Both the position numbers and the translations under genes were made by a program. This document shows, piece by piece, positions 3,821 to 46,149 of a stretch of DNA of 64,000 nucleotides (its first letter is position 1; every line of letters begins with the position of its first letter). Origin of the DNA: a virus (Duplodnaviria; Heunggongvirae; Uroviricota; Caudoviricetes); the IMG/VR virus record IMGVR_UViG_3300030294_000676. The stretch is one strand, 5' to 3'. A model generated the notes under the pieces. It was not told the origin of the DNA, searched no databases, and saw only the letters and a program-made list of their open reading frames with translations.

Positions 3821-3825
3821 TTTTT

Positions 3826-4629: not shown

Positions 4630-4630
4630 G

Positions 4631-4945
4631 CTAAATTGTTTTTAAAGATTCTTGTAAAGCATCTTCTAATGCATCTTCATAATCTTCAAAGTCTTCTCCA
4701 TATATACCATCAGGTAATTGTTGGTGAGGTGTTGTTATATTATACATCCAAGATTCTTGAGAACAAGAATAAATTGTAATATGTATTTTATGTTTTTCTC
4801 TTAACCATCTTTGTAAAAGAGATTGAGGTGCATCATCATACACTAATGTAGGATGATATGGATCAAAAAATCCTTTTTCTTTAGCCAATACAGCAGTTTC
4901 AAAACTTATTGGCTCTTCTTCCATTAAAAATTCTTCATCTTCCAT
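4631..4945 (-). CDS. hypothetical protein (104 aa)
   Basis: ORF track. Confidence 0.55.
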   Translation of the reverse strand: MEDEEFLMEEEPISFETAVLAKEKGFFDPYHPTLVYDDAPQSLLQRWLREKHKIHITIYSCSQESWMYNITTPHQQLPDGIYGEDFEDYEDALEDALQESLKTI

Positions 4946-5035
4946 AACTATCTGTCAGCTTGTGAAAGTAACCACACAAGTCCTAAAATAACTCCTGTGA
5001 ATACTCCACCTATAAATGTTAGTAATAATCCCATA

Positions 5036-5896
5036 TTAATTAATTTTTTCATTACTGAAACTACTTGGATAAATACTCATATCTTTAAGATCTAAGAATT
5101 TACTCATAATTTCGGGTTCATATAAACTTATCTTTATATTGTGATCACCATCTTTAAGATAAGGATAGAAATTTGCACCAAATGCTATTTTACTCGCGTC
5201 TTCTGGTAACTGAGTTACAAGATAATCCCAATCAATTTCTTTATGAGGAGCACGTCCTACATTACCATAAGGAAGAAGTACAAAGTAATCAACTTTATCT
5301 TTCCACTCATTATAAATTTTAACAAAATCATCAATTGATTGTTTATCAGAAATTATATGATGAAAATTAAGTTTAATTCCATTTCCCACATAAAGTTTTG
5401 CTGCATTATCCCAATATTTTTTCAAATGTGGATGACAACTTATAGCAACTCCTCCACAATATTGTTTTGTAGCATTTAATAAATTTGCTTGTTCTTGAGG
5501 ATTAAATTCATCTAAATGATACCACATACCATTAGTAGTATAATTTGGAGTAATATCAAACTCTTCCTTACAAACTCTCATCAATTCAACAAAATCAGGA
5601 TGTGAAGTTGGTTCTCCACCACCAAATGCTATTTGAAAAGGTAATTGTTCTTTTGAAACATTACTGAAGAAAGTTTTAAATTTATCAACAATATTCTCAT
5701 AATGAGTTTCTTTCTTACTATCCATATAACACCACGGACATTCACCCTCACAATTTCCAGTAACTTTTACATCATAAAATTCTGGATACTTCAACTCAGT
5801 AATAGGTTTACTTGGATCAATTGCAAAACGAATTGTTTTACCATTACACCAAATAGCTCTATAATTAGCATCTTCTTCTTTTCTTCTTTTAATCAT
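5036..5896 (-). CDS. radical SAM domain protein
   Basis: CEGECPWC (Cx3Cx2C) followed by GGGEP. Subfamily not resolvable by eye (NrdG-like or QueE-like). Confidence 0.7.
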   Translation of the reverse strand: MIKRRKEEDANYRAIWCNGKTIRFAIDPSKPITELKYPEFYDVKVTGNCEGECPWCYMDSKKETHYENIVDKFKTFFSNVSKEQLPFQIAFGGGEPTSHPDFVELMRVCKEEFDITPNYTTNGMWYHLDEFNPQEQANLLNATKQYCGGVAISCHPHLKKYWDNAAKLYVGNGIKLNFHHIISDKQSIDDFVKIYNEWKDKVDYFVLLPYGNVGRAPHKEIDWDYLVTQLPEDASKIAFGANFYPYLKDGDHNIKISLYEPEIMSKFLDLKDMSIYPSSFSNEKIN

Positions 5897-6371
5897 AATG
5901 TTCAGCTGATTCAGAACTGTTTAAAAAACGTAATAATTTATCACACAATGGTTGGTAAATAGGATCTTTAGCCACAATATATAAGTTAGAATCAGCATAA
6001 CTATCATCTCTAACATATTCTTCAACTCTAGTCATCCATTCAGGTTTATCAACTCGATTATGTAATATATCTTCAATGATAGCTTTTACATAATCATAAG
6101 GAGTCAATGTACCTCTAGGAATATTTATACATTCCTCATAAGTAAATTCACCTATTTCATTATGATCTTCAAAAGTATCAATATATCTGTAAGAATCTAA
6201 AAAGACTCCGGCAATCATTATATCATCAAATTTTTCACCATGATTAAGTACTGATAACATCTCATTTATTAATTCTTTCAAAGGTCCAATACATCCATCA
6301 TGAAATGTATATATTGTAGTTGATGAATTAGTAATAAGATCAACTGCACTGTGTATTTTTATTTCAAACAT
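5889..6371 (-). CDS. hypothetical protein (160 aa)
   Basis: ORF track. Confidence 0.55.
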   Translation of the reverse strand: MFEIKIHSAVDLITNSSTTIYTFHDGCIGPLKELINEMLSVLNHGEKFDDIMIAGVFLDSYRYIDTFEDHNEIGEFTYEECINIPRGTLTPYDYVKAIIEDILHNRVDKPEWMTRVEEYVRDDSYADSNLYIVAKDPIYQPLCDKLLRFLNSSESAEHYD

Positions 6372-6674
6372 TTATAATATATTTATATAAGGTAAATATT
6401 GTTTTGCTTTTTGTAATAATTCAGGTTTCTTTTCCATAGTAGCCATTACGGTTATTAAAGATTCTGCTCCAAATTCATTTACAATTATTTGAACTGCTCG
6501 TAATAAAGCATATCCTTCTGCTTCACTTTTAATAACTGCTCTAAAAGTTAACTCTTCAACCATAGGATATGTTATAGGTTTTAAAGTTCCTGTACCTTGA
6601 ATTGCTTCTGATGCAGGTATTTTTGCAACGGGTAATTGAATCCCGTCTGTATTTATATTTGTATTCTCATCCAT
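6372..6674 (-). CDS. hypothetical protein (100 aa)
   Basis: ORF track. Confidence 0.55.
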   Translation of the reverse strand: MDENTNINTDGIQLPVAKIPASEAIQGTGTLKPITYPMVEELTFRAVIKSEAEGYALLRAVQIIVNEFGAESLITVMATMEKKPELLQKAKQYLPYINIL

Positions 6675-6679
6675 AATTT

Positions 6680-6716
6680 TTTAATAAAAAAGGAAGGAGT
6701 ATTACCCCTTCCTTAA
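6680..6716 (-). terminator. intrinsic terminator-like hairpin
   Basis: aaggaagg-agtattacc-ccttcctt (6690..6714) immediately after the stop of 6724..6927, followed on the minus strand by a U-rich tract. Confidence 0.5.
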
Positions 6717-6723
6717 ATAATTT

Positions 6724-6927
6724 TTAATTTTCACATTTCAAGATTTTTAAAATCTCACAGTCTTCAATAACATAAGTATCCATCACATCACTTGTAGGCT
6801 TACCTAAAGTTTCGAGATAATGTTTTCTTATTTTATTTCGTTCTTCCATAAGTATTAATTCAATAACTTTTACTAAAGGAATTTTTACATAGTCTTCAGT
6901 CATATTATTAAATTTTATACGTTTCAT
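6724..6927 (-). CDS. hypothetical protein (67 aa)
   Basis: ORF track. Confidence 0.5.
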   Translation of the reverse strand: MKRIKFNNMTEDYVKIPLVKVIELILMEERNKIRKHYLETLGKPTSDVMDTYVIEDCEILKILKCEN

Positions 6928-7234
6928 AAATTGCTAACGTACTTCCTGCTGCAGCTGAAATTGCCATAAAAGATGAAATAGAGTTTGTTTCAAAAGCTTC
7001 ACCACCTTCTTGAGATGATGATGCTGGAAATAATTGAACTTCATAATCAGTTGGAGATACAATAGAATAAGCTCCTTTTAAAGGAATTTTCTTCAAATAA
7101 ATTATATTCGGACTGGTATTTTGAAATCTAACATTAACTCTTTTTCTATTTTTTTCGACTACAATTGTAGCAGTAGTTCCTATTGTAATTGGGCTTGCCA
7201 TAATTTTAATTTTTTTTAAAATTATTTTAAACAA
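6908..7234 (-). CDS. hypothetical protein (108 aa)
   Basis: ORF track. Confidence 0.5.
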   Translation of the reverse strand: MFKIILKKIKIMASPITIGTTATIVVEKNRKRVNVRFQNTSPNIIYLKKIPLKGAYSIVSPTDYEVQLFPASSSQEGGEAFETNSISSFMAISAAAGSTLAIYETYKI

Positions 7235-8012
7235 CAGCAGTAGGAGTAAAGTGAGCTAAAATCGTACTTAATAGATATTGATTTTGTTCGTTATTACTTA
7301 CTTTACCGTTTGCAGTAGCAAGTTGATCACGTAAACTTTGAACATTCAAATCATTAATTAATGCACGAGTTGCTCCACCATCAGCAGCAATTGCTGATTT
7401 TATTTCACAACAGCATTGAGCCATTGCCATTGCATTAGCTGTACCTTGTGATATAATTTGATTTGTAGCGTTTTGATTTTGCATTGCTGCTCCATTAAAA
7501 CCTTGTAATGTTGTAGTTGTTAAATTATTAAATGAATTTAATTGTTGTAACTGACCTTGATTACTTTGTGCAGTAATATCACGACCTAAATCGTTAATTC
7601 CTTGCAAAGTAGTAAATGCTGATGTAGCTTGTGCTGTAGAAAGATTAGCTACCGAATTTAAAATGTCAGCAGAACTATTATCTATAGCGCTGTTAACTCT
7701 ACGAAATTCACTATTCAAGATACTATTTAAGTCACCAGAAGCAACTTGAGATCCTAAATTAGTAATTTGTGTTTGTAATGATTGAAAAGCAGGATTAAGA
7801 ACAACGTCAGTTGCTACAGCTGTTGCTGCAGGAGCTGCTCCGTATCCATTACCACCCCAACCACCACGATTGCCGAATAAACCACCTGCTAATGCTCCAC
7901 CAAGACCACCAGCTAAAAGTCCACCAAGAACTCCACCTCCAACGCCTAAACCTGCGCCAGATCCTCCTCCGAAATTAGGCATCGGAGTTGTGCCATCTAA
8001 TGTAAGTGCCAT
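7227..8012 (-). CDS. hypothetical Gly-rich / Gln-Asn-Ser-rich protein (261 aa)
   Basis: N-terminal about 60 aa is nearly pure Gly/Ala/Leu (GGGSGAGLGVGGGVLGGLLAGG...). Then a Q/N/S/T-rich region and an unusual QCCCEIK motif. Confidence 0.55.
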   Translation of the reverse strand: MALTLDGTTPMPNFGGGSGAGLGVGGGVLGGLLAGGLGGALAGGLFGNRGGWGGNGYGAAPAATAVATDVVLNPAFQSLQTQITNLGSQVASGDLNSILNSEFRRVNSAIDNSSADILNSVANLSTAQATSAFTTLQGINDLGRDITAQSNQGQLQQLNSFNNLTTTTLQGFNGAAMQNQNATNQIISQGTANAMAMAQCCCEIKSAIAADGGATRALINDLNVQSLRDQLATANGKVSNNEQNQYLLSTILAHFTPTAVV

Positions 8013-13415: not shown

Positions 13416-13781
13416 TTAGACTGCAAATTTATTTGCAACCTTTTTGATAAGTTCATCTATATTCTGAACATCAATCGTAGCCAAGTGAATTTCATTTTCG
13501 ATATCCTCTGTACTAAAACTAGGAGCATCTTTAAGAATAGTTTCAAAATATGCAGAACGAATTTCATTCATAGTATCGTTTGTACGATATGAACGAACCT
13601 TCCATTTATCAGAAATCGTTTGTAACATAATACAATCTTCATTAAGTTCGAAGAAATTTTTGTATTCATCCGATTCTCTAATTGCAGCATTTGCAGCATA
13701 AATTGGATCTTGATACTTTTCTTTTAATTCTTTTTTAATCTTTGATGCTAAAGCACCTACTTGCGCATTTGATAATTTCAT
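13416..13781 (-). CDS. hypothetical protein (121 aa)
   Basis: ORF track. Confidence 0.55.
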   Translation of the reverse strand: MKLSNAQVGALASKIKKELKEKYQDPIYAANAAIRESDEYKNFFELNEDCIMLQTISDKWKVRSYRTNDTMNEIRSAYFETILKDAPSFSTEDIENEIHLATIDVQNIDELIKKVANKFAV

Positions 13782-13789
13782 CTTTATTT

Positions 13790-14161
13790 CTATTTATTTG
13801 TGAATAATTTACTTACTTGTTTACCATCATATAAACCAGCGTGATATTGTTTAAAATGTTTCATACATTCTCCAACTGAATTAAATTTATATTCATTTAG
13901 AATATCTTTAATATCTAAATCATTTAATTGTTGTGGTAAGAATTGTTCAAGTATAACATTTTCTTCTAAGTTAGTATTACATTCAATGTTACTAGCTATC
14001 ATCTTCTTAAGAACTGAAACAACTTCCTCGTCTGTAGCAATGTAACCTGCTACTTTCTTAGGACCTTTTTCAATTCTTTCAATTTCTCCAAGAACTACTC
14101 CTAAAAGTGTTCTTGTTTCTCGGTTAGTGAGCCTATGCTCTATTATTTGCTCTTTCAGCAT
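13790..14161 (-). CDS. hypothetical protein, possibly a GatB/YqeY-like domain (tentative)
   Basis: N-terminus MLKEQIIEHRLTNRETRTLLGVVLGEIERIEKG weakly resembles the YqeY family. Confidence 0.45.
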   Translation of the reverse strand: MLKEQIIEHRLTNRETRTLLGVVLGEIERIEKGPKKVAGYIATDEEVVSVLKKMIASNIECNTNLEENVILEQFLPQQLNDLDIKDILNEYKFNSVGECMKHFKQYHAGLYDGKQVSKLFTNK

Positions 14162-14414
14162 CTTTCATCATTTTTAATTCTGTTATTACATGTCTTAAAT
14201 CATCAACTGAATATCTTTCGATTTCTCTAATGAGTTCAAACTTTTCTTCATCAACACCCCAACTTGATACACAATTATCAGCATGTTTACTAAACAATGA
14301 AAAGAACCTACCTTTTATTGAATCACGTAATGCTCCATCAGATAATCCCATAAATGAATCTTTTTCTATAGGACCAATCATACATTTCCAATACCTTAAT
14401 TCTGGATTTTCCAT
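14133..14414 (-). CDS. hypothetical protein (93 aa)
   Basis: ORF track. Confidence 0.5.
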   Translation of the reverse strand: MENPELRYWKCMIGPIEKDSFMGLSDGALRDSIKGRFFSLFSKHADNCVSSWGVDEEKFELIREIERYSVDDLRHVITELKMMKDAERANNRA

Positions 14415-14481
14415 TAATCTTTATCAATTAAAATTGCAAATAATCCTATTAAAATAATTAATGCAATTAATATTATTTTTA

Positions 14482-14772
14482 TCATGCTTCTGCTTTTTCT
14501 AATACTTTATCGACCATTGGTTCTTTAATGTATACTTTTTTCAATGATTTCTGTCCTGATTCAAGCATTACTAATGAATCATATAATTCTTTATTAATGA
14601 ATTCACTATATAAAGTATTTGCCGAAGCTACTAATGCATCGCATTGTTCAATAAGTTTTCCAACTTGTATTTTAATTTCATCGTGTGTTAATACAACTTT
14701 TTTTTCTTCAGTAGTTTCTACTGGTTTTGCATTAACATCTTGTCCTAATTTATTCCAGGTTATATTATCCAT
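14482..14772 (-). CDS. hypothetical protein (96 aa)
   Basis: ORF track. Confidence 0.5.
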   Translation of the reverse strand: MDNITWNKLGQDVNAKPVETTEEKKVVLTHDEIKIQVGKLIEQCDALVASANTLYSEFINKELYDSLVMLESGQKSLKKVYIKEPMVDKVLEKAEA

Positions 14773-16630: not shown

Positions 16631-16978
16631 TTAAAAAGGTAATATTATCATTAATTCTTTTCTAATTTCATAACTTAGTTTTTCAAACCAACATATAAAT
16701 TCGTAATTATCTGTATTATTAGTTAATGCAAATAATTCATGATCATAACAACATGAACCAAAACCTCTAACATATCGACCACAAACTTCAATTTGTTGAC
16801 TATATATTAACTGATGTGGTTGATCTGGATCTTGATAACCATATACACAACAAAGTCCATCGGGTTCACTTTTGTAATAACATGTCCAAAATCACCATTC
16901 TGATTGTGGTACATCATCAAATTCTTCTTCAAGTCCAGATTCAGGATCTATATCTAAATTTACTGTTACTAATCTCAT
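16631..16978 (-). CDS. Cys/Trp-rich hypothetical protein with an in-frame TGA (codon 16892..16894). Paralog of 16989..17267
   Basis: Minus-strand ATG at 16976-16978 to TAA at 16631-16633. One internal TGA in ...PQSEW[TGA]FWTCYY.... Both paralogs share a Cys-rich core and end in LPF. Confidence 0.5.
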
Positions 16979-16988
16979 TATTCTATTT

Positions 16989-17267
16989 TTAAAAAGGTAA
17001 ATTATTTCTTATTTCATCAGGTAAGTTATTCATCCATTCTATAAATTTAGGATGATCTAAATGTTCATCAATAATAAGTAGTCCAACAGTTGCTGAACAT
17101 TGTCCAGGATAACCTCTTGTTCCATTTACTTTTATCATATCACTAAAACTAAATTTATCATAGCCAATATTACCACCATAAAGACAACAACTTGCATTAG
17201 CACATTCCATAAGACAACCTGTAAAGAAATACCATTTATACTCTGAATCTTCACCGTATTCATTCAT
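16989..17267 (-). CDS. Cys-rich hypothetical protein (92 aa), paralog of 16631..16978
   Basis: ORF track. ...EYKWYFFTGCLMECANASCCLYGG...LPF. Confidence 0.55.
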   Translation of the reverse strand: MNEYGEDSEYKWYFFTGCLMECANASCCLYGGNIGYDKFSFSDMIKVNGTRGYPGQCSATVGLLIIDEHLDHPKFIEWMNNLPDEIRNNLPF

Positions 17268-17360: not shown

Positions 17361-17369
17361 ATATAGAAG

Positions 17370-17456
17370 CGTACACGGCAGGATTCGAACCTGCGGTGGA
17401 ATATTATTCACCAGGTTAACAGCCTGGACCTGTCGACCAACTAAGGCAACGTGTAC
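17370..17456 (-). tRNA. atypical tRNA with anticodon GTT (Asn-like) but a long variable-arm hairpin (type-II-like)
   Basis: Perfect acceptor GTACACG/CGTGTAC, anticodon stem CCAGG/CCTGG, loop CTGTTAA, extra arm GAAT-AAT-ATTC, T-arm GCAGG-TTCGAAT-CCTGC, G73. Confidence 0.6.
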
Positions 17457-17457
17457 A

Positions 17458-17631
17458 TTATTCTTCTGAATGTATTTCTCTGTGACAATTAGCACAGACC
17501 ATAATACATTTATCTAATTCTTCTTTAACTTTTTCTCATGCTCTAGTATATCCTTTTGCTGATATTCCAAAATCTTTTTCATTTGGATCTAAATGTTGTT
17601 TCACCATGTGTTTTACACACTCTCATTTCAT
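17458..17631 (-). pseudogene. HNH endonuclease C-terminal remnant with two in-frame TGA codons (17623..17625, 17536..17538)
   Basis: Translation MK[TGA]ECVKHMVKQHLDPNEKDFGISAKGYTRA[TGA]EKVKEELDKCIMVCANCHREIHSEE* ends in the HNH CxxCH...H motif. The N-terminal half of an HNH domain is missing. Confidence 0.45.
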
Positions 17632-20046: not shown

Positions 20047-20991
20047 TCATACATTATGTACAATTATTTGTAAATCAGCAAATTGTGTGATTAACTTCTT
20101 ATGACCATTAATAAAATCTCTAGCTGACATAACCTTTTTATTAGGTAATTGTAATGAAACAATCTGAAGACTACTTTTATTACAATTTATAAAAAGTTTA
20201 TTATTTTCAACACAAATTAATTCTCCATCTAAGAAATCACCTTTAACACGTCCAGTATACATACATGCATCTTTAATTTTAACTTCAGTATTGTTATCTG
20301 GTAAATAAAAGAATACTCCGTGATTCGATTCATATGCCTTCATTTTTGCATATACATCATCAACATTTTTATTAAAATCAAGTAAACAATCATCTTTAGT
20401 TATTTTACAACAATATGTAGCTTCACTTTCTATCTGTGGTCTTAAAATAACTCCACGAGTATATTTAGTGATTGTTAGAAGAATATTTTCAGCAGCTAAG
20501 TTTGATAATTGATCAAGAAGCATAATATATCCCATTCCTACAGGTAGATACATTTTACGTTGAGTAATAATACTTCCAGCATCTACAGCAGCATTCATTT
20601 TAATAAATGTAACTCCTGTTTCAGAATCTCTATTCAAAATAGCAGCTTGAATACAAGAAGCACCTCTATACTTCGGTAATAATGAACCATGAATATTAAT
20701 TGCACCATATTTAGCAGAATCAAGTATTTTCATTTTAATTATTTGTCCATAAGATGCAACAACAATTAAATCAAAATCAGTACTAATTATACGATGTTCA
20801 AGTTCATTAATATCATTAGCAGTATATACTAAACAACCTAAAGCTTTACCAGCAATATAAATAGGTGTATTTTGTACTACTCTACCGAAACGTCGTGGTG
20901 GTGTTGTTATAACTGTAACTTGATAAATTTCATGTAATTTTTTTAATGCTGGAACTCCAAAAATTCCATTACCAATAAATAATATCTTCAT
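20047..20991 (-). CDS. fmt: methionyl-tRNA formyltransferase
   Basis: NIHGSLLPKYRGASCIQ, ETGVTFIKMNAAVDAGSII and the C-terminal VSLQLPNKKVMSARDF align closely with E. coli Fmt (NVHGSLLPRWRGAAPIQ; LSLQPAGKKAMSAQD). 314 aa. Confidence 0.85.
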   Translation of the reverse strand: MKILFIGNGIFGVPALKKLHEIYQVTVITTPPRRFGRVVQNTPIYIAGKALGCLVYTANDINELEHRIISTDFDLIVVASYGQIIKMKILDSAKYGAINIHGSLLPKYRGASCIQAAILNRDSETGVTFIKMNAAVDAGSIITQRKMYLPVGMGYIMLLDQLSNLAAENILLTITKYTRGVILRPQIESEATYCCKITKDDCLLDFNKNVDDVYAKMKAYESNHGVFFYLPDNNTEVKIKDACMYTGRVKGDFLDGELICVENNKLFINCNKSSLQIVSLQLPNKKVMSARDFINGHKKLITQFADLQIIVHNV

Positions 20992-21822: not shown

Positions 21823-21842
21823 TTTATCTATTTTTATATTTG

Positions 21843-21925
21843 TACTCGAGGTCGGACTCGAACCGACACATCTTTCGACATATGCTCCTAAGGCATACGC
21901 GTATTAACCATTTCGCCACTCAAGC
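21843..21925 (-). tRNA. tRNA-Leu (anticodon TAG), type II
   Basis: D-stem GCG/CGC, anticodon stem TATGC/GCATA, loop CTTAGGA, T-arm GTCGG-TTCGAGT-CCGAC. Confidence 0.75.
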
Positions 21926-21930
21926 ATTTG

Positions 21931-22012
21931 CACATCAGGTAGGATTTGAACCCACGAACCTTTCGGATTAGTTTTGGAGACTAACTACTTTAACCGCTTG
22001 TATACTGACATA
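21931..22012 (-). tRNA. atypical tRNA with anticodon CCA (Trp identity: CCA plus G73) but type-II-like architecture (3-bp D-stem, long variable hairpin)
   Basis: Anticodon stem TTAGT/ACTAA, loop CTCCAAA, variable arm TCCGAAAGGTTC, T-arm GTGGG-TTCAAAT-CCTAC, discriminator G. It is the only CCA-anticodon tRNA found in the array. Confidence 0.6.
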
Positions 22013-22017
22013 TTTGC

Positions 22018-22096
22018 TCCCCCAAGGAGGACTCGAACCCACATGTCTCTCGACATATTCCGAAGAATACGCGTCTGCCAATTACGCCATTGGGGA
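22018..22096 (-). ncRNA. tRNA-like RNA with normal acceptor, D-arm and T-arm, but with two tetraloop hairpins (UUCG and GAGA) in place of an anticodon arm
   Basis: TCCCCAA-TG-GCG...CGC, then TATTC-TTCG-GAATA and ATGTC-GAGA-GACAT, then T-arm GTGGG-TTCGAGT-CCTCC and TTGGGGG. Confidence 0.45.
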
Positions 22097-22102
22097 ATTT
22101 AG

Positions 22103-22191
22103 TGGGGGCGGAGGGCTTCGAACCCCCATGTCTCACGACCGCTATGGTCTAACCTATATTTAGCTGCGGCTACCAATTTCGCCACACCCCC
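22103..22191 (-). tRNA. Leu-type (type II) tRNA-like with non-canonical anticodon loop ATATAGG (apparent anticodon ATA)
   Basis: Acceptor GGGGGTG/CGCCCCC, D-arm GCG-AAATTGGTAGC-CGC, 4-bp anticodon stem CTAA/TTAG, T-arm GGGGG-TTCGAAG-CCCTC. Confidence 0.45.
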
Positions 22192-22434: not shown

Positions 22435-23214
22435 TTATATTTTATCCCATTCATCATCAGACAAACTATTTATTTCTTTCTTTGAAGAAGGTATATTAAA
22501 ATGTTTACACCATTTTCTAATAGCATTATCTGATCTATTGTATAATTTACCAATATTAATAAATGTTTCTGTGCGAACTAAAGTTTTTAAATATTCACGA
22601 GTTATACCAAGTTCATCGTAAAAATCATTAGCTATTCGTTTAGCAGAACAACTTAAACATAAACCACTTACAGAAGAACTTGTTATAGTATTACCACAAG
22701 AATTACAATATAATGCATCTATAACTTTATCTTTAACATTTTTACCTTTATAATTATCAGTAAAAGCATGACAGTTTGGACATAATAATTTAAGATTATT
22801 TAATTCATTATTAGTTTTAATACCATCTATGTGGTGTGTTTCTAATGGAATAGGTTCTCCCATTCATTTAGTATTATCACAACATTCACATTTATGTTCT
22901 TTTAGATTATTTTTTAATAATTTATCTCTTAACTTACTTGTTTGTGTATATGCTGAATCTTTACAAAAGATTGTATCTAAAGTGTACACATTCTTAGTTT
23001 CATTTGAAGAATTTCTTTTAAAATGAATTGTGCTAATTTGATGTTTTTTTATCTTAGTTTGAATTGTTTCATAATTACCAGCAGTTAAAGGCAACCCATA
23101 ATATCTACACACATCTGCAAAAGAATAACTTTCTTTTACAATTTTTTCTAAATTTTCTTTTGAATATTTGTTTTCCATAAATTGAACTATTATATTAATA
23201 GTACAAAGATACAA
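22435..23214 (-). CDS. HNH homing endonuclease with an in-frame TGA (22864..22866) at a conserved Trp position. Listed as two ORFs in the track
   Basis: ...KEHKCECCDNTK[TGA]MGEPIPLETHHIDGIKTNNELNNLKLLCPNCH.... The CxxC...HH...N...CPNCH motif spans the TGA. Related HNH proteins have ...EW.GKP... at this point. Confidence 0.65.
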
Positions 23215-26046: not shown

Positions 26047-26526
26047 TTATCTATTATTAATAATATTACTAATGGTTCCTTTACTACTAATATTATATTT
26101 TTCCATAATTTCTTTATAAGTATGCCCTAAATTTCGGTATGCTTTAATTTCTAAAACTAATTCATCAGAATATTTTTTATTAGCATTAGATGCAATTCTA
26201 ATTCTTTCTTCTTTAGGTTTATCCATCATATTATCACTATATGATCCAATTTCAATATTATCCCAAGAATTATTTAATCCGTTACCATCTAAATGTCTAA
26301 CTACTATATCTTCGTTAAAAATAATTTCTCCAAATTTTTGATATGCTTGTAATCTATGTACTTTAACTGGAATATGTTTTTCATTTAATCTAATATTAAA
26401 TTTTTTATAATTTTTATTATAAATAGTTCCTGTTAAAATTTTTTCTTTAGGATTTAAAATATCACCATTTATAGTTATTTTATATCCTTTTTCAATTGCT
26501 AATAATTCATTTTTACTTCTTTCCAT
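26047..26526 (-). CDS. HNH homing endonuclease (about 159 aa; start moved to an internal Met)
   Basis: VVRHLDGNGLNNSWDNIEIGSYSDN (HNH), with a C-terminal DNA-binding-like tail. It abuts the tRNA-like element at 26531. Confidence 0.65.
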   Translation of the reverse strand: MERSKNELLAIEKGYKITINGDILNPKEKILTGTIYNKNYKKFNIRLNEKHIPVKVHRLQAYQKFGEIIFNEDIVVRHLDGNGLNNSWDNIEIGSYSDNMMDKPKEERIRIASNANKKYSDELVLEIKAYRNLGHTYKEIMEKYNISSKGTISNIINNR

Positions 26527-26530
26527 ATTG

Positions 26531-26607
26531 TACCTACTCCTGGGATTGAACCAGGCTGTCACCAAATAACCTTTCAACAAGATATAAGCTTGAGGGTATA
26601 AGTAGGC
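26531..26607 (-). ncRNA. aberrant tRNA-like (76 nt). Good acceptor and T-arm, but no canonical D-arm; internal hairpin CAAG-CTTATAT-CTTG
   Basis: GCCTACT...AGTAGGT acceptor, T-arm CCTGG-TTCAATC-CCAGG. The middle does not fold as a cloverleaf. Confidence 0.4.
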
Positions 26608-27580
26608 ATAAAAAATCTCTTTATTCACTTTAAGCAGAGTGGAATAATTATATTGACTTAGGTCATAACGAAGGCTTTTCTGCGAACACTAACCATATCA
26701 TAACTACATTTACCAAAACATTCAACCACTGCTATGGTTTATAACCTACGTACTCAACTTTCGTCCTTACCCCTTATTGGGTTGGGTGTCTCCCCCTGGT
26801 TACCGTTTTGCTTCAATTAAAGAGATTTTATTTGTTCAACTTAGAGTAGTCACGGCTACCTCTGATCTCTAAGTCTAATACTAACAGTGGCAAAATGTAG
26901 CTCGACCCTAGTTAGTTTTGTTAATTGGTATGGGCAATAACTTTATAAGTTAAGACTACAACCCCATCTTTGATGGTTTATTCTATCGTAGCTAATAATA
27001 AATAAACCTAGTTGTACTCCAAGCTGGACTTGAACCAGCGACCCTCGGTTTAGAAAACCGATGCTCTATCCACTGAGCTACTGGAGCATTTTAAAAATGA
27101 GTAACGGGAGGGACAATTACACGCATGTTATCCACGGGACTACACCTACATCTTTTCGTTAGGGATATCTGGACTTAATTCCTCATTCTAAGTCAGCATT
27201 GGGTTCCCCTCTTACCTGACTCACCGACCATTCTCGGATGTTACTCATTTAATTTTTAAAAATATTGATGTGCTATTACGCCAAAGGGATTTCAGTCCTT
27301 ACCAGTTACGGGGTGACCTCCAACTTACCTTACCACATTAAATTCCAACTTGAATTGGTTTATCAACGTAGTCTCGTCCCACTCTTTAGATGATTGCTGC
27401 TTCCAAGCCAACATTTCAATATTTTATATTTTAAAAAAGATATACTAATTGCGATTGTATATTATAGAAACATCATCGACGATAATAAATTACCATTCTA
27501 GATATAACATTCACCAATACTTTAAATACGGAGGAATTCCAGAGTCACTTCCCTCATATACAATTAGAGCCCTCTGGACC
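26608..27580 (-). ncRNA. ORF-free, GC-clustered structured region (about 970 nt) embedding tRNA-Arg. Candidate large structured ncRNA (GOLLD/ROOL-like) or intron-like element
   Basis: Stop codons in all six frames. Base composition unlike the flanking AT-rich coding sequence. Long-range complementary pairs, e.g. AAATGAGTAAC...GTTACTCATTT around 27090..27250, and many GC-rich hairpins. Confidence 0.4.
27015..27087 (-). tRNA. tRNA-Arg (anticodon TCT)
   Basis: Anticodon stem TCGGT/ACCGA, loop TTTCTAA, T-arm GCTGG-TTCAAGT-CCAGC. Confidence 0.8.
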
Positions 27581-30643: not shown

Positions 30644-31144
30644 CTATTCTTTAGGGAATTCTAGTTCTTGTTGAACTTTTTTTGGTGGAACTTTATAGTT
30701 CATTGGCATCATTGTTATAATACCATTTCTTACATACATCTCAGCACAACGATTATCATCATCAAATGCCATAAGAATGTCATACTCTTCTTGAAGCTTC
30801 TTTAAAGTAGCTTCTTTCGATAAATATGATTTAGTATAGTCTATACCTTGTTTCATGAATAATTTATATTCATCATCATACAGAAGTCCTCCGTCTTCTA
30901 GTTTTTCAATTAACCATGCTTCGGTTTGAGGTCTTACTCGTTCAGGTCTCCCTGTAACAAGTAAAATCATATATCCTTGCATAGCTAGTGATTGCATTAG
31001 TTCACCAACACTTTTAATAAGCACGTCACCTGATAAATCACTCCAATCAAAAGGACTTCTGTTAGTATGATACAAAGTAGTAAGATCTAAATCAAAGATT
31101 ACTGCTTTTTCTTTTTCCATAAGTTTTTTAAACTTGGTTTCCAT
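30644..31144 (-). CDS. HAD-superfamily phosphatase (polynucleotide 3'-phosphatase-like)
   Basis: AVIFDLDLTT (motif I DxDxT) ... LLVTGRPE (motif II). Confidence 0.65.
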   Translation of the reverse strand: METKFKKLMEKEKAVIFDLDLTTLYHTNRSPFDWSDLSGDVLIKSVGELMQSLAMQGYMILLVTGRPERVRPQTEAWLIEKLEDGGLLYDDEYKLFMKQGIDYTKSYLSKEATLKKLQEEYDILMAFDDDNRCAEMYVRNGIITMMPMNYKVPPKKVQQELEFPKE

Positions 31145-31375: not shown

Positions 31376-32806
31376 TTATTTACTTGTTTTTAAATCGGCT
31401 TCAAGATAACTCTTAGCAATAGTGCGAATTTCTGTCCAATGTTGATCTCTCATTAATTTACCATTACGATAAACTATTTCAAGTTCATCAGCATATCCAT
31501 TATTAATACCATATTGTTCTTTAGAACTTTCGATAGTAATGAATTCTGATCCGGCTTTATGAAGTTTCAAAATACCAGCTTTTGAAGCTTTAGTCATATC
31601 TCCTTTAGGAGATTTACGAATATCTTTTGATTCTCCATCAATTACAGCGAAACAGCATTTTACTGCCCAACGATCTGTATCTCTGGTCAATCCTTCAACA
31701 AGCAAACCACCACCTGAACCAACCGCAAAGTTTTCACAAGACCAACCAGTTTTAATGTATTCTGAATAAATATCAACGATTGAATTTTCATTCATACCAT
31801 CTCCTTGAATTAAGCCTACATTATGATTAATTACTCTGTAATCTACTTCATTTAAGTGATATCCAAAAATATTACCAAGCATTTCAGAATACTTAATCAT
31901 ATTTGTTAACGGAACACCAGAATCCGGACGTAAAATAGTTCTACCTGGACGTGCGATAATACGTTGTTTGATTGCTTCTGAACCAATAACATTTTTAATG
32001 AAATTAGTATCATCATAAGAATCAATAACAATTGATACCATAGCATCGTCACCAGCGCGATCAAATTGAGCATTGACATAATCAAATTCTCCCTGACCAG
32101 GACCAAATACAGTTGCTACTGAGTGTTCAGTTGCCCATACAGATTTTCCTACGGTTGCATCTCCGTAATAGTCTTCAATAAATTCCATTGCTGGAACATT
32201 ATCAGAACCATCAGAAAAGATTAAAGCAGCAGAACCACCTAAACAAGCAGCTTCATGACCTTGAGCACCTCTTAATCCAAAATCATTAACTACATAATCC
32301 AACATAGCGTTGTTAGTAGAGATTTTGAATGATGGAGTAATACCTTTATGAATATTATACATACGAGTAGCAACGGCAACTGGATACCAATTCCACATTA
32401 ACCAAGGTTCGAAGTGACTAACCATTGGTGCAAACCACTCTTCAGTAGCTTCAATTGTATAACAAACATTACCAGTTGGAACAACAGTTCCTTCTTTTAC
32501 AGCTTTGATTTCTAAAGGATAATATCCTAAATCGCGAACTTTTTCCCAAATTTCTTGAGGGAAATAACCAGGGTTACCAAAAGTATTTAAACTTCTACGA
32601 GCACCACGTTCAATATCTTCATTAGTGACAACAGTCATAAAATATTCTTTTATGAAATATTGTATACCATAGAAAACAATATGAGAGTGTTGACCTCCTA
32701 CACGAGGTTCTCCATAAGACATAAGTCTTGTCAATCCCGAAGGACGTTGCGTCCAATGCACAAATTTATATGCATCAGTTGCGGTTGTTGGATGAAATTT
32801 TGGCAT
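31376..32806 (-). CDS. nadV: nicotinamide phosphoribosyltransferase (NadV-type)
   Basis: 476 aa. N-terminal ATDAYKFVHW matches the NAMPT signature (ATDSYK.TH). Size and layout match phage KVP40 NadV. Confidence 0.8.
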   Translation of the reverse strand: MPKFHPTTATDAYKFVHWTQRPSGLTRLMSYGEPRVGGQHSHIVFYGIQYFIKEYFMTVVTNEDIERGARRSLNTFGNPGYFPQEIWEKVRDLGYYPLEIKAVKEGTVVPTGNVCYTIEATEEWFAPMVSHFEPWLMWNWYPVAVATRMYNIHKGITPSFKISTNNAMLDYVVNDFGLRGAQGHEAACLGGSAALIFSDGSDNVPAMEFIEDYYGDATVGKSVWATEHSVATVFGPGQGEFDYVNAQFDRAGDDAMVSIVIDSYDDTNFIKNVIGSEAIKQRIIARPGRTILRPDSGVPLTNMIKYSEMLGNIFGYHLNEVDYRVINHNVGLIQGDGMNENSIVDIYSEYIKTGWSCENFAVGSGGGLLVEGLTRDTDRWAVKCCFAVIDGESKDIRKSPKGDMTKASKAGILKLHKAGSEFITIESSKEQYGINNGYADELEIVYRNGKLMRDQHWTEIRTIAKSYLEADLKTSK

Positions 32807-33381: not shown

Positions 33382-33720
33382 TTATAGTTTTATTAATTTA
33401 ATAAATTTTGAAGTGTCTTGTTTAATAACATCGTGTTGAAATCTTTCATAAAATTTAATATCAACTGCTTCAAATTCATGAACAAACCATCCAAATTTTT
33501 GAAGTTTAATAATATCTGCTTTAGGAAACCATTGATATAAACCCTCTAATGATTCAGTAACTGATAACCAGCCTACTAATTTAGGATCAAAATCCATTTC
33601 AAGTTTTGAATTTAAACAAAAATTAAAATCATTATGAATTAATCCTGTAAAAATACCTTTATAATCATACCATAAACCTTGATGGGTATTTATGTTACAT
33701 ACTCTGTAGTATTTTTTCAT
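33382..33720 (-). CDS. hypothetical protein (112 aa)
   Basis: ORF track. Confidence 0.55.
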   Translation of the reverse strand: MKKYYRVCNINTHQGLWYDYKGIFTGLIHNDFNFCLNSKLEMDFDPKLVGWLSVTESLEGLYQWFPKADIIKLQKFGWFVHEFEAVDIKFYERFQHDVIKQDTSKFIKLIKL

Positions 33721-34616
33721 TTTTCAGTATTTTTTAATAAGTCAACTAATAACTTTTTATGTTCTCCAACCAAGATTTTGTCTAGCTCAGGACCGTATGG
33801 GAACCATTTTAAGGCAGCAATATCATCTTGAGGTTGTGGACTACCAAAAGTATATTTACATTTGTATAAATGCGTCATAATTTTAGCATCATGTGAATTC
33901 TTATATCGCCAATCTTCTACACGTTTTGAACAAACGAATTCAAAGTCAGCAAGTTCAAGACCTGTTTCTTCTCTACCTTCACGACGAGCAGCAGCTTCAT
34001 CGGATTCATCAGTAACATCAACAAATCCTCCAACAAAACACCATTCTTTTTCATCAGGTTTTTGACCTAATAGAATTTCACCTTTTTCATTAAAGATTGC
34101 AACATCAACTGTTGAAAATGATCGGGGATATTGTGAAAAAACCGAATAAATTATACCAGCTCTGAAATCAGATGATGCTAATATACGTCCGGCAACTTTC
34201 TTTCTAATATCTGTTGCAGATATATAGACTTCTGGTTCAAGTTCAGTTGTTTTCCAATTTCCAGTATAATATGGAATAAACGAATCTTTACCTCCATAAA
34301 GAGTAACTGTTCCAGATGGAAAAATATCTCTTACTTTAGTACGAATTTGAGTAGACCATACTTCATTGGATTTACAATCAGCAAGTGGTACAATTGAAGA
34401 TATTCTATTTCTAAAATGTGCTTCGATCATAGCTTTACGGGTAATAAAATCCAATGGATTTCTTTGAGTACCCATTGCAGATGTAGTTCCTAAGAATAAA
34501 ATTACCTTTTCGTGGTTTGCAAGAACATGTTCAATTAACTTGATATGTTCAGTATGCAATTCGTGTAGCTGAAATCTCCCGATAACAACTCCAATTTCTG
34601 TTTGAGTTTCGTTCAT
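33717..34616 (-). CDS. natV: bifunctional NMN adenylyltransferase / Nudix hydrolase (NatV/NadM-Nudix type)
   Basis: GVVIGRFQLHELHTEH (nucleotidyltransferase HxGH-type motif) and the Nudix box GGFVDVTDESDEAAARREGREETGLE. Confidence 0.8.
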   Translation of the reverse strand: MNETQTEIGVVIGRFQLHELHTEHIKLIEHVLANHEKVILFLGTTSAMGTQRNPLDFITRKAMIEAHFRNRISSIVPLADCKSNEVWSTQIRTKVRDIFPSGTVTLYGGKDSFIPYYTGNWKTTELEPEVYISATDIRKKVAGRILASSDFRAGIIYSVFSQYPRSFSTVDVAIFNEKGEILLGQKPDEKEWCFVGGFVDVTDESDEAAARREGREETGLELADFEFVCSKRVEDWRYKNSHDAKIMTHLYKCKYTFGSPQPQDDIAALKWFPYGPELDKILVGEHKKLLVDLLKNTEK

Positions 34617-34984
34617 TATGGATTTAAAAATTGTTTTAGCAATTCATCATTTAATATTGTGTCTGAATTATTTGCATAAAATTCCGCAAAATCAAACATT
34701 TGTTGTTTAGTAAATTTAGGAATATTAATAAAATATAATTCTTTAAATTGTTCAAAAGTAATTTCTTCTCCTCTAAGTTGATCAAATATACCTTGTACAA
34801 TATCTGATCCAGATCTCGCCTCAAGATTATTTACTACAATAGAAATATCATTACTATCTGAATGTTCTTTAATGTTAGTTGTGTGTGATCCTACCCATGA
34901 ACAATTATTTTTAAATATTATTTCTTGAACAAATTTAAATTGATCCCTAGTAAGATGATGTATTTTAAAATTTTCGATTATCAT
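34616..34984 (-). CDS. paralog family B member 1 (122 aa)
   Basis: MIIENFKIHHL...VQEIIF ... C-terminal ...LNDELLKQFLNP. One of five tandem paralogs. Confidence 0.6.
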   Translation of the reverse strand: MIIENFKIHHLTRDQFKFVQEIIFKNNCSWVGSHTTNIKEHSDSNDISIVVNNLEARSGSDIVQGIFDQLRGEEITFEQFKELYFINIPKFTKQQMFDFAEFYANNSDTILNDELLKQFLNP

Positions 34985-35352
34985 AATTTTAAGAAGTCAG
35001 TTAATACATCATCTGGAGATGATGCGCCAACTATATTGTTAGTGTAATATTCAGCAAATGCAAGGATTTTCTCTCTAGATATACGTAAAGTATTAGCATA
35101 TTTTTCTTTAAATTGATCATATGTTAATTCTTCTCCTTCAAGACCATCAAATGTACTTTGGGTAACTACTACACCGGATCTTAACATACCTTTAGATGTC
35201 ATACATAAAGTAATAGTATTACTAGGACTAAACATTCTTAAATCTTTATCTAAGCTGCTTCCCCATCCACCACCATCGCGAAATACCATATTTTGAACAA
35301 TTTTAGATTGTTCATTATCAAGATGATATATTTTAAAAGGTTTTATTTCCAT
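34981..35352 (-). CDS. paralog family B member 2 (123 aa)
   Basis: MEIKPFKIYHL...VQNMVF. Confidence 0.6.
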   Translation of the reverse strand: MEIKPFKIYHLDNEQSKIVQNMVFRDGGGWGSSLDKDLRMFSPSNTITLCMTSKGMLRSGVVVTQSTFDGLEGEELTYDQFKEKYANTLRISREKILAFAEYYTNNIVGASSPDDVLTDFLKL

Positions 35353-35725
35353 TTTTTGGTTTTATAAAGTTATCAAATAATTGTTCTATTGTTAATTCAT
35401 CATTTAAATGATCCATACAATATTTAGCAAAATCAATACAAGTTTGTCTACTTGTTTCACCTTTACCAAAATATCTAATTTTAAATTCTTCTAATGTTAT
35501 TTCAGGATTATCATGATTATGAAAATATCCTCCAATAGTTGCATCACCAGTTATAGTATTATTTAAATAATGATATAACCCTTTCCACGAACTACCTTGG
35601 CTATCAACAAGATTAACTTCTGATTTACCATTTCTCCATTTTGAACCATTTTGAAATAATAGTTTTTGAACAAATATGGACTCTTCTGGATTATTTACTC
35701 TTATTTTAAAATTCTCATTTATCAT
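35333..35725 (-). CDS. paralog family B member 3 (130 aa)
   Basis: MINENFKIRV...VQKLLF ... MDHLNDELTIEQLFD. Confidence 0.6.
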   Translation of the reverse strand: MINENFKIRVNNPEESIFVQKLLFQNGSKWRNGKSEVNLVDSQGSSWKGLYHYLNNTITGDATIGGYFHNHDNPEITLEEFKIRYFGKGETSRQTCIDFAKYCMDHLNDELTIEQLFDNFIKPKNGNKTF

Positions 35726-36110
35726 TTTTCAGATTTAATATATATTCATCATATAATTCTTCAAATGTTTTTTCATCATTTAAATGGTTCATACAATATT
35801 GTACAAACAAAACATATTTATTTTTTTCTGAATGAATAGAGTCAGTTACATATTTACTACAAAAATCTGCAAATGATATTTCATTTTTATCATGTCTATT
35901 AAACGATGATGTAGAAGTTATATCAGTAAATCCTCCAATTTTTTTAGTTACAGAATTATATTCAAGTCCATTCCAATTTATATTTGGATTAGGTCCAAAT
36001 AAAACTGTTTCTTGACCTTCTCTCCATTTAGCTCCATTAGAAAACAAAGTTTCTTGAACTATTTTATGTTCTCTTTCATCTGCAATTTTAATTTTAAAAC
36101 TTTCAATCAT
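35715..36110 (-). CDS. paralog family B member 4 (about 131 aa; start set to the internal Met matching the paralog N-termini)
   Basis: MIESFKIKIADEREHKIVQETLF ... MNHLNDEKTFEELYDEY. The ORF-track start at 36176 would overlap member 5. Confidence 0.55.
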   Translation of the reverse strand: MIESFKIKIADEREHKIVQETLFSNGAKWREGQETVLFGPNPNINWNGLEYNSVTKKIGGFTDITSTSSFNRHDKNEISFADFCSKYVTDSIHSEKNKYVLFVQYCMNHLNDEKTFEELYDEYILNLKNDK

Positions 36111-36471
36111 TTTTCCAATCTTTAAATAGTTCTTGTGGCGTTTTTTCATCATTAAGGTGATCCATGTAATATTCAATGAATTTAAACATGATATCAGTAG
36201 TAATTATAACATTTTTAGTTGAAACATTAAAAATATCATATTTTTCAATAAATTCATCATAAGTAATTTCTTTATGCTCATGATCATCAAAATGTACATT
36301 AGTATTTCCAAAACCAGTCATTTGTTTTGAATGATATCTATAACAAATTCCTTCATAATAAAATGAAGATAAAAATTTCTCTAATAAACCCATACTACTT
36401 AATATTCTCTGAACAGTTTTTATTTGATCAGGATTACTAACTTTCATCTTAAAATTTTCTACTATTTCCAT
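36103..36471 (-). CDS. paralog family B member 5 (122 aa)
   Basis: MEIVENFKMKV...VQRIL ... MDHLNDEKTPQELF. Confidence 0.6.
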   Translation of the reverse strand: MEIVENFKMKVSNPDQIKTVQRILSSMGLLEKFLSSFYYEGICYRYHSKQMTGFGNTNVHFDDHEHKEITYDEFIEKYDIFNVSTKNVIITTDIMFKFIEYYMDHLNDEKTPQELFKDWKND

Positions 36472-36486
36472 TTAATTTCAATTTAA

Positions 36487-36893
<407 letters not shown>

Positions 36894-46063: not shown

Positions 46064-46149
46064 TTCTTTTTATCATTTTGTGTTTAACCTACACGAATTG
46101 TGTAACGCACTAAGCTTAATAACTTTATACTCCCTTAGTGGAGTTAAAA

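Follow-up and report, generated by a model that had tools for sequence, protein, structure and literature searches.

A Class-II-Like tRNA-Trp(CCA) Gene and In-Frame TGA Codons in Homing Endonuclease Genes of an Uncultured Jumbo Phage

Can a phage-encoded tRNA-Trp with an unusual body account for TGA codons at tryptophan positions in genes of the same phage? The question is raised by a stretch of DNA of 64,000 nucleotides (hereafter the window) from a virus of the Caudoviricetes (IMG/VR record IMGVR_UViG_3300030294_000676), which encodes a tRNA with anticodon CCA in a body resembling that of class-II tRNAs, as well as open reading frames (ORFs) interrupted by TGA. A first-pass annotation treated this tRNA as aberrant and proposed that its altered core lets it read UGA, in the manner of the Hirsh suppressor of Escherichia coli, and thereby gates the expression of homing endonucleases. 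We consider it probable that the gene encodes a working, UGG-decoding phage tRNA-Trp of class-II-like shape and that the TGA codons are young nonsense alleles surviving by near-cognate leak. A tRNA-Trp with a long variable arm on a class-II scaffold is seemingly an undescribed structural class in phages.

Structure and identity of the tRNA-Trp gene

The gene and its diagnostic parts lie as follows.

21930–22011, minus strand: tRNA-Trp(CCA), class-II-like, 81–82 nt, the feature under study (ARAGORN, Rfam, and our own covariance model)
21975–21977, minus strand: anticodon CCA in the loop CUCCAAA (sequence reading and ARAGORN)
21956–21967, minus strand: variable arm UCCGAAAGGUUC, 12 nt, a CC/GG stem with a GAAA loop (sequence reading)
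21986–22002, minus strand: D-arm with a UAC/GUA stem of 3 bp and a loop of 11 nt; the 10-25 pair is not conserved, so that the stem is effectively 2–3 bp

Two independent tools call a tRNA gene at this locus. ARAGORN reports tRNA-Trp (cca) at 21930–22011 on the minus strand with the anticodon at position 35, and the Rfam tRNA family (RF00005) matches 21931–22011 with 43.5 bits, where the gathering score is 29. Our own covariance model of the Trp subfamily (R1) scores the gene at 101 bits, and its sequence is 100% identical across seven population variants. The first-pass annotation had placed it at 21931–22012, which is the right gene off by one base, and had not stated its strand; the ARAGORN isotype call that it proposed as a check is Trp. 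In 5′-to-3′ order along the minus strand, the gene is AUGUCAG-UA-UAC-AAGCGGUUAAA-GUA-G-UUAGU-CUCCAAA-ACUAA-UCCGAAAGGUUC-GUGGG-UUCAAAU-CCUAC-CUGAUGU-G. The acceptor stem AUGUCAG/CUGAUGU, which begins with A1-U72, U2.G71, and G3.U70, is followed by U8 and A9; the anticodon stem UUAGU/ACUAA closes the loop CUCCAAA, and the T-arm is GUGGG-UUCAAAU-CCUAC. The discriminator is G73, and the CCA end is not encoded. The D-stem is not formed in the minimum-free-energy fold.

Body and identity elements belong to different classes. Class-I architecture comprises a variable loop of 4–5 nt and a 4-bp D-stem, and the window tRNA-Trp departs from it with a 12-nt hairpin and a 3-bp D-stem of which two pairs are conserved. 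It does have the architecture of class II (a variable stem-loop of more than 10 nt and a 3-bp D-stem) but lacks the anticodon of a Leu, Ser, or Tyr tRNA and the A73 of those for Leu and Tyr, carrying CCA and G73 instead. C34, C35, and A36, together with G73 and a weak A1-U72 pair, agree with Trp identity. A1-U72, G73, A9, and a CUCCAAA loop are marks of bacterial tRNA-Trp, and G73 with a weak 1-72 pair is a determinant set for tryptophanyl-tRNA synthetase (TrpRS); we take the 7-nt loop to be identical to that of tRNA-Trp in E. coli and Bacillus subtilis. Judged by these elements, the most likely charging enzyme is the host TrpRS, by way of CCA, G73, and the weak A1-U72 pair. Sequence and Rfam bear out the structure that the first-pass annotation had read here, with CCA, G73, a 3-bp D-stem, an 11-nt D-loop, and a long variable hairpin.

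The array also holds no canonical tRNA-Trp, as that annotation had noted. The gene is the sole one with a CCA anticodon among the 24 tRNAs that ARAGORN finds in the window, and there is no tRNA in ~20 kb of extra flank taken from metagenome contigs on both sides, so that the 84 kb covered (window plus flanks) contain no other tRNA-Trp. A hidden canonical tRNA-Trp or a UCA suppressor was considered and rejected, the one extra Rfam match (51016–51101) having no usable anticodon and the flanks no tRNAs.

Distribution and conservation of long-arm tRNA(CCA) genes

An exact 41-mer of the tRNA-Trp gene occurs in one IMG/VR contig (L001), in which the tRNA is 89% identical and the remaining locus unrelated; the phage itself is thus absent from the collection searched. 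A generic pattern was then applied, in which a T-loop comes 17–24 nt after the Trp anticodon loop; only a tRNA with a long variable arm fits it. Among the IMG/VR matches listed, 102 of 120 are tRNA(CCA) genes of 81–90 nt according to ARAGORN, 77 of them unique, and at least 77 are distinct overall. The same pattern in cellular genomes, scanned at one genome per prokaryotic species, yields nine long tRNA(CCA) genes among the 120 matches listed, and seven of the nine are in loci with at least four tRNA genes. Counts in both scans are lower bounds; given 102 of 120 viral versus 9 of 120 cellular matches listed, the class is strongly enriched in viruses.

The structure is conserved throughout the family. 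All four stems are kept in the 71 unique members that parse cleanly, with each position of the acceptor, anticodon, and T-stems paired in 65–71 of them by many pair types. The variable region spans 11–16 nt and forms a hairpin of 2–6 bp. G73 is parsed in 71 of the 77 unique members (five of the six exceptions are apparent register errors of the parser), and the 1-72 pair of the clean members is A-U in 36, G.U in 24, U-A in 5, and G-C in 4. Invariance of CUCCAAA across the family is partly due to the search design. In the nine-member subfamily nearest the window, 97% of cells are paired and 15 of 22 pairs show compensatory double changes, a result matched by none of 500 shuffles. Pairs 46-53 and 47-52 of the variable arm are kept in all nine members, with one compensatory change; in the D-stem, 10-25 is unpaired in five of nine, and 11-24 and 12-23 are paired in all. 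The term aberrant therefore does not suit this body, which is a conserved and recurrent phage design with at least 77 unique relatives.

Long variable arms are common to other isotypes in these viral loci. By ARAGORN, tRNAs of at least 80 nt make up 14 of 31 for His, 17 of 55 for Lys, 9 of 33 for Cys, and 6 of 27 for Asn, and they occur for Arg and others too; the fractions are biased upward because the loci were chosen for a long-arm tRNA-Trp. Since His, Lys, Cys, and Asn tRNAs have long arms as well, the arm is not a device specific to Trp or UGA. The best non-Trp matches of model R1 are class-II Ser, Leu, and Tyr tRNAs: Ser(UGA) and Leu(UAG) of the window score 46 and 45.5 bits, phage tRNA-Tyr genes 64–65 bits, and a gene in locus L054 74 bits. 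Taken on sequence, the scaffold looks class-II-derived and reused by phage arrays for several isotypes. Textbooks limit bacterial long variable arms to Leu, Ser, and Tyr tRNAs, plus that for Sec. Full-text literature searches gave no description of a long-arm or class-II-like tRNA-Trp, nor of His, Lys, Cys, and Asn tRNAs with long arms as characteristic of phages; a prior description is possible.

Two further observations concern the scaffold and the anticodon loop. The gene in L054 (2351–2432, plus strand) has a body nearly identical to that of the window tRNA-Trp (D-arm, variable arm CCCGAAAGGUUC, and T-arm) with the anticodon loop CCUUCAA, in which position 33 is C, and is called Glu(UUC) by ARAGORN; the scaffold appears to have been reused there with another anticodon. 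Two contigs of bacterial metagenome-assembled genomes (MAGs; L201 and L218, CAZXQA010000001.1 and another) have tRNAs with a Leu-like class-II body, an A discriminator, and the loop CUCCAAA (CCA). The former is the lone tRNA called in an 8-kb locus of a Saccharibacteria MAG, and the latter is among six tRNA genes. From their sequences, these tRNAs may be Leu-charged decoders of UGG.

In-frame TGA codons at Trp and aromatic positions

Five in-frame TGA codons are found in four ORFs of the window, all at Trp or aromatic positions. The ORFs and an intact gene for internal comparison are as follows.

22435–23178, minus strand: HNH homing endonuclease gene 1, in-frame TGA at 22864–22866 in an invariant Trp column
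58677–59087, minus strand: NUMOD4 + HNH_3 homing endonuclease gene 2, in-frame TGA at 59064–59066 at the NUMOD4 Trp
16631–16978, minus strand: small ORF B, in-frame TGA at 16892–16894, aligned to a Tyr of the upstream paralog at 16989–17267
17458–17631, minus strand: truncated HNH remnant, TGAs at 17623–17625 and 17536–17538, the second aligned to Phe in homologs
26047–26628, minus strand: HNH_3 homing endonuclease gene 3, intact and with TGG for Trp; the internal comparison

The TGA of gene 1 is in the column of W105, which is Trp in all of 20 homologs. The closest of these (L136 and L137; 75–79% amino acid identity, also flanked by tRNA genes at the same position) read TGG-ATG at the site of the TGA-ATG in the window. 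An evolved split gene, with reinitiation at the ATG after the TGA, was rejected because the TGG-ATG of the homologs makes the ATG ancestral. In gene 2, for which Pfam finds NUMOD4 (2e-17) and HNH_3 (7e-11), the TGA aligns with W3 of I-HmuI (PDB 1U3E), and all homologs at 75–81% identity have TGG, including seven copies (three distinct sequences) at 75–79% identity. Because close homologs keep TGG, the TGAs in both intact genes are derived in this lineage (TGG>TGA). That of gene 1 is fixed in seven population variants, and both homing endonuclease TGAs are fixed in all population variants found, one of which is 99% identical. Gene 1 has no other damage, and its window branch has a ratio of nonsynonymous to synonymous substitution rates (dN/dS) of ~0.28, similar to that of relatives, on a branch so long (dS 0.28) that the ratio can neither date the TGA nor show upkeep after the mutation.

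Stops of other kinds are absent: none of the four ORFs has a TAA, a TAG, or a frameshift, and the window has no TAG-interrupted genes. The alignment of ORF B with its paralog runs across the TGA. Under neutral nonsense models, the joint probability of TGG>TGA at all five stops is 2e-5 to 6e-8, and ~1.6e-4 for the three endonuclease ORFs alone, values that carry the caveat that the ORFs were found partly by seeking TGA. In-frame UGA codons at Trp positions, on which the first-pass annotation had built its proposal, are thus real and nonrandom, as exemplified by the invariant Trp of gene 1 and W3 of I-HmuI in gene 2. A literature search found nothing directly relevant on UGA-interrupted homing endonucleases.

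Public gene calls (L123, 14434–14844; protein P0003) differ in how they treat the codon. Some (ENA and one 175-kb JGI contig) translate TGA as Trp and others truncate, so that annotation pipelines have evidently given the same phage different genetic codes.

UGA decoding in phages with long-arm tRNA-Trp

Four homing endonuclease queries were searched by tblastn against all fetched loci, and conserved Trp codons were scored. In other phages with a long-arm tRNA-Trp, the homologs have TGG at ~17 conserved Trp sites and TGA once, in locus L014 (IMGVR_UViG_3300013830_000002). The claim that an altered core enables UGA reading is not supported, since the same body is present in at least 77 phage tRNA(CCA) genes, whose endonucleases use TGG. 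Two other searches were set aside: an all-against-all six-frame search for spanned stops across 122 loci was too noisy because related noncoding frames align, and strict motif regular expressions were insensitive.

Within the window, TGA ends 13 of 97 ORFs of at least 90 codons, and the next in-frame stop follows TGA no more closely than it follows TAA (p = 0.30, window ORFs), giving no sign of an excess of backup stops. The pair U11-A24 is absent, 11-24 being A-U in the window tRNA-Trp and G-C or C-G in its relatives. No tRNA with anticodon UCA is present among the 24 of the window, in the flanks, or among 842 ARAGORN tRNAs of the first 121 fetched IMG/VR viral loci. The 20 kb of extra flank has no genes with in-frame TGA, leaving four such ORFs across 84 kb. 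Genome-wide reassignment of TGA or TAG is rejected for the region covered, in which the standard code gives long intact ORFs and four need readthrough of TGA. Efficient general decoding of UGA as Trp is unlikely because homologs use TGG, TGA is an ordinary stop, and both U11-A24 and a UCA tRNA are lacking. Low-level readthrough of UGA would be compatible with everything observed.

The phage of L014 has a tRNA-Trp of the same subfamily as the window and TGA at a conserved HNH Trp. Its array includes a CUA suppressor tRNA, its homing endonuclease genes are TAG-rich, and its large housekeeping ORFs have no in-frame stops. Four plus-strand ORFs (2020–2845, 3422–3953, 6255–7311, and 13768–14557) each have 2–8 in-frame TAGs, and one also has a TGA. 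The pattern resembles amber recoding focused on selfish genes.

A separate case concerns locus L002 (IMGVR_UViG_3300036715_001927), where an ORF of 487 codons for an RtcB-type RNA ligase (minus strand, reverse-complement offsets 3965–5426) has one in-frame TGA, at what we take to be the conserved Gly position of the RtcB motif G-x-D-I-x-C-G. The ORF may be a pseudogene, or the codon may hint at UGA coding for Gly.

Tandem, array, and genome

Exact-protein look-ups find near-clonal copies of this phage in dozens of metagenome assemblies, with contigs as long as 213 kb, which identifies it as an uncultured jumbo phage. INPHARED has no relative by megablast of the tRNA region or tblastn of an 885-amino acid ORF, and blastn of the tRNA returns only partial T-arm matches. 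The window is ~30% G+C, nearly all genes are on the minus strand, and ARAGORN finds 24 tRNA genes and a transfer-messenger RNA (tmRNA), all on that strand. Neighbors of the tRNA-Trp gene and a further long-arm gene of the array are as follows.

21842–21925, minus strand: tRNA-Leu(UAG), class II, 4 nt downstream of tRNA-Trp (ARAGORN, Rfam)
22016–22097, minus strand: Leu-like class-II tRNA-like gene in which a cUUCGg tetraloop replaces the 7-nt anticodon loop, 4 nt upstream of tRNA-Trp
22102–22191, minus strand: class-II Leu-like tRNA (G1-C72, A73) with apparent anticodon AUA, first of the tandem (Rfam 32.5 bits)
17369–17456, minus strand: tRNA-Asn(GUU), 88 nt, with a long variable arm (ARAGORN; Rfam 39.4 bits; fold)

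The tRNA-Trp gene is third in a tandem of four genes, all of class-II shape and separated by 4-nt spacers, in the order Leu-like AUA tRNA, Leu-like UUCG-tetraloop gene, tRNA-Trp, and tRNA-Leu(UAG). The tetraloop gene is called tRNA-??? by ARAGORN, matches Rfam with 28.2 bits and five loop positions missing, and has the tetraloop in its fold; it is without an anticodon and shows 100% conservation across the population. Candidate explanations are a decoy, a processing element, and a degenerate paralog of tRNA-Leu(UAG). The first gene of the tandem, which ARAGORN assigns to Tyr, has mismatches in its anticodon stem and an A34 anticodon, which is very unusual. The tRNA-Asn(GUU) is the second class-I isotype with a long variable arm in the window.

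Other RNA genes and repeats are scattered on the minus strand. The tRNA-like match at 51016–51101 (Rfam 47.5 bits, missed by ARAGORN) has an 18-nt anticodon loop, AGCAAGACAAAAACAUUA, and could contain a small intron or be a nondecoding tRNA-like RNA. The phage-encoded tmRNA (36487–36893; Rfam 107 bits) has the predicted tag GNKTISFARTAFMAAA. A Pistol ribozyme match lies between ORFs at 46083–46144 (41.6 bits versus a gathering score of 34.5), and 33382–36471 holds a tandem run of five or more paralogous small ORFs (~120–150 amino acids each), alike at their N-termini (M-x-I-E-N/S-F-K-I...) and C-termini (...YYMDHLNDE...).

Auxiliary genes include fmt, NAMPT, a Nudix protein, a PNKP-type phosphatase, ClpP, an OmpA-domain protein, glutathionylspermidine synthase, and several HNH endonucleases. 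Four of these are on the minus strand at 20047–20991 (methionyl-tRNA formyltransferase, within the array), 30644–31144 (PNKP-type HAD phosphatase), 31376–32806 (NAMPT), and 33717–34616 (Nudix-domain protein). The phosphatase possibly acts in repair of tRNA or RNA, and NAMPT and the Nudix-domain protein possibly act in salvage of nicotinamide adenine dinucleotide.

Comparison with known tRNAs

The window tRNA-Trp shares with canonical bacterial tRNA-Trp(CCA) the anticodon, the loop CUCCAAA with A36-A37-A38, G73, A1-U72, A9, and the 7/5 arrangement of acceptor and T-stem. It differs in its 12-nt hairpin arm versus 5 nt, in a D-stem of 2–3 bp without G10-C25 versus 4 bp, in R11-Y24 versus Y11-R24, and in that CCA is not encoded. 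The Hirsh UGA suppressor is reportedly E. coli tRNA-Trp with G24A, which changes U11.G24 to U11-A24 within a canonical class-I body. Both tRNAs have an unchanged CCA anticodon and differ from the canonical form outside the anticodon arm, the D-arm included. Beyond this the analogy drawn by the first-pass annotation is not supported: 11-24 of the window tRNA is A-U, its main deviation is a whole extra arm, and it is a candidate suppressor only.

Likeness to class-II tRNAs (Tyr, Ser, and Leu) extends over the 3-bp D-stem, the D-loop (AAGYGGYYAAAG), which is long and contains GG, and the variable arm, a hairpin of ~3 bp capped by a tetraloop, after which comes UUC. The variable arm of tRNA-Tyr is 12–13 nt, and that of the window tRNA-Trp is 12 nt. 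Unlike class-II tRNAs, the window tRNA has a Trp-type anticodon loop, G73 versus the A73 of Tyr and Leu, and a weak 1-72 pair versus the G1-C72 of tRNA-Ser.

Suppressor tRNAs with anticodon UCA or CUA are encoded by stop-recoded phages (preprint PMC12636597 and work cited there). As in those phages, the tRNA is phage-encoded and located in a tRNA array, and some genes have in-frame stops; L014, with its CUA tRNA, is a similar case. The window tRNA is nevertheless no suppressor of the type found in recoded phages: it has the sense anticodon CCA rather than UCA, and in-frame TGA is confined to four dispensable ORFs in 84 kb, TGA being otherwise a normal stop. Irregular tRNAs and tRNAs with an 8/4 branch are known from phage clusters (Mukai et al. 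2016–2017, PMC5389517). Those allo-tRNAs and 8/4 tRNAs are similarly noncanonical, have long variable arms, come from metagenomes and phage tRNA clusters, and carry anticodons unexpected for class II, but theirs is an 8/4 or 9/3 branch with Ser identity, whereas the window tRNA has Trp marks. Because its branch is regular, with a 7-bp acceptor stem and a 5-bp T-stem, the window tRNA-Trp is not an allo-tRNA.

Proposed mechanism and alternative explanations

The gene, its fold, its conservation and distribution, and the nature and polarity of the TGA changes are established here; Trp charging, UGG decoding, and low-level UGA readthrough are what we infer for this tRNA. As an elongator tRNA-Trp of the jumbo phage, it would read UGG with a scaffold made of a Tyr/Ser/Leu-type D-arm and a variable hairpin of 11–16 nt, and the long arm would be a shared trait of phage tRNA arrays with no adaptation for UGA. 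The TGA-at-Trp codons of this phage are derived TGG>TGA mutations in selfish or dispensable genes. Any tRNA-Trp(CCA) is expected to misread UGA alone among nonsense codons, by a C34-A mismatch at the third position, and this leak would grow with additional tRNA-Trp from the phage. TGA-at-Trp alleles may persist because such misreading still yields some wild-type protein, and the occurrence of TGA as the only stop would fit a filter for the one leaky stop codon that restores Trp.

Several points weigh against this account. Three of four homing endonuclease-like ORFs have TGA at Trp or aromatic positions where relatives have TGG, and L014, the sole other TGA-at-Trp case found, has the same tRNA-Trp subfamily. 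There are hints of a lineage-specific factor beyond ordinary leakage, and the genome, of at least 213 kb, could contain a suppressor tRNA with anticodon UCA, or late genes recoded for TGA, elsewhere. The account also leaves the reason for the long arm unexplained. Moreover, G73 and a long variable arm are determinants of seryl-tRNA synthetase (SerRS) too (PMC7609411), and charging of the window tRNA by TrpRS is here a prediction. The same determinants favor an alternative in which a class-II tRNA of Ser, Tyr, or Leu lineage drifted to CCA and kept its old charging, so that Ser or another amino acid is inserted at UGG. Its class-II-like body, the R1 scores of Ser(UGA) and phage tRNA-Tyr, and the existence of Leu-like bodies with CCA anticodons in bacterial MAGs all speak for such a missense tRNA. 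We nonetheless regard it as highly improbable, given that G73, a 1-72 pair other than G-C (65 of 71), and an invariant CUCCAAA are conserved together, that A73, the identity element of Leu and Tyr, is absent, and that the array would otherwise have no Trp decoder, yet covers the other 19 amino acids (ARAGORN). The variable stem of the window tRNA is, in addition, just 2–3 bp, which is short for SerRS. The first-pass annotation had named a degenerate Leu/Ser tRNA as the outcome that would overturn its reading; the class-II-like body fits that description, and covariation, the conserved Trp marks, and the absence of A73 speak against it.

More can be said for the reading of the first-pass annotation, in which a weak D-stem and a long arm make the tRNA an efficient decoder of UGG and UGA, similar to the Hirsh tRNA, that gates the TGA-interrupted homing endonucleases. 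The tRNA is the sole tRNA-Trp in 84 kb; five TGAs with no TAA or TAG are at Trp or aromatic sites of four ORFs; and TGA was gained independently in both intact endonuclease genes, of which gene 1 is otherwise undamaged with a dN/dS of ~0.28. L014 combines the same tRNA subfamily with TGA at a conserved HNH Trp, and two of three clean sites have the UGA-A context, a leaky one in E. coli. The weakness of the D-stem is unusual, 10-25 being often unpaired, and the Hirsh mutation is likewise in the D-arm. This reading is nevertheless unlikely. The architecture is widespread in phages with TGG endonucleases and common to non-Trp isotypes, U11-A24 is absent, and TGA stops 13% of ORFs without extra backup stops, so that efficient reading would harm many proteins. 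The TGAs are also young, as close homologs have TGG, and the dN/dS is averaged over a long branch. A somewhat unlikelier version is that, in this lineage at least, a loosened core of D-arm and variable arm lets the tRNA read UGA in addition to UGG with enough efficiency for endonuclease expression, as a conditional recoding switch based on structure with a sense anticodon. If true, the TGA-interrupted endonucleases would be expressed only with the phage tRNA present, by a system distinct from those with UCA or CUA suppressor tRNAs.

The tRNA may alternatively serve mainly as a nuclease-resistant replacement for, or a decoy of, host tRNAs targeted by defenses, or else be a decaying copy. Phage tRNAs have been proposed to evade anticodon nucleases (PMC10264068). 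Its neighbors are the anticodon-less UUCG-tetraloop gene and the odd AUA tRNA, and the PNKP-type phosphatase, tmRNA, and fmt of the phage, along with RtcB in its relative L002, suggest tRNA repair. A role in antidefense or decay is distinctly doubtful, however. No Trp-specific tRNA nuclease was identified in this analysis. The strong covariation speaks against decay, as do the intact anticodon loop and the 100% conservation across the population. A replacement tRNA would still read UGG and so overlaps with a working, UGG-decoding tRNA-Trp, which is the explanation that we prefer.

Implications for phage tRNAs and selfish nucleases

The value of this locus rests on a widespread and apparently unrecognized structural class and on a clean TGG>TGA pattern, rather than on a recoding switch that has been shown. 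Long-arm tRNA-Trp is common and conserved in phages, where His, Lys, Cys, and Asn tRNAs with long arms occur too, in contrast to the textbook limit of such arms to Leu, Ser, and Tyr. This has consequences for annotation of tRNAs and calling of isotypes in viromes, and one may ask how the extra arm is tolerated, or exploited, by TrpRS, SerRS, EF-Tu, and the ribosome. The scaffolds are candidates for orthogonal tRNAs, and they bear on the reasons why phages carry tRNAs, for example evasion of host tRNA nucleases. Repeated TGG>TGA changes, and only that change, in the homing endonuclease genes of one phage provide a clean natural case in which to ask whether UGA leak serves to throttle selfish nucleases.

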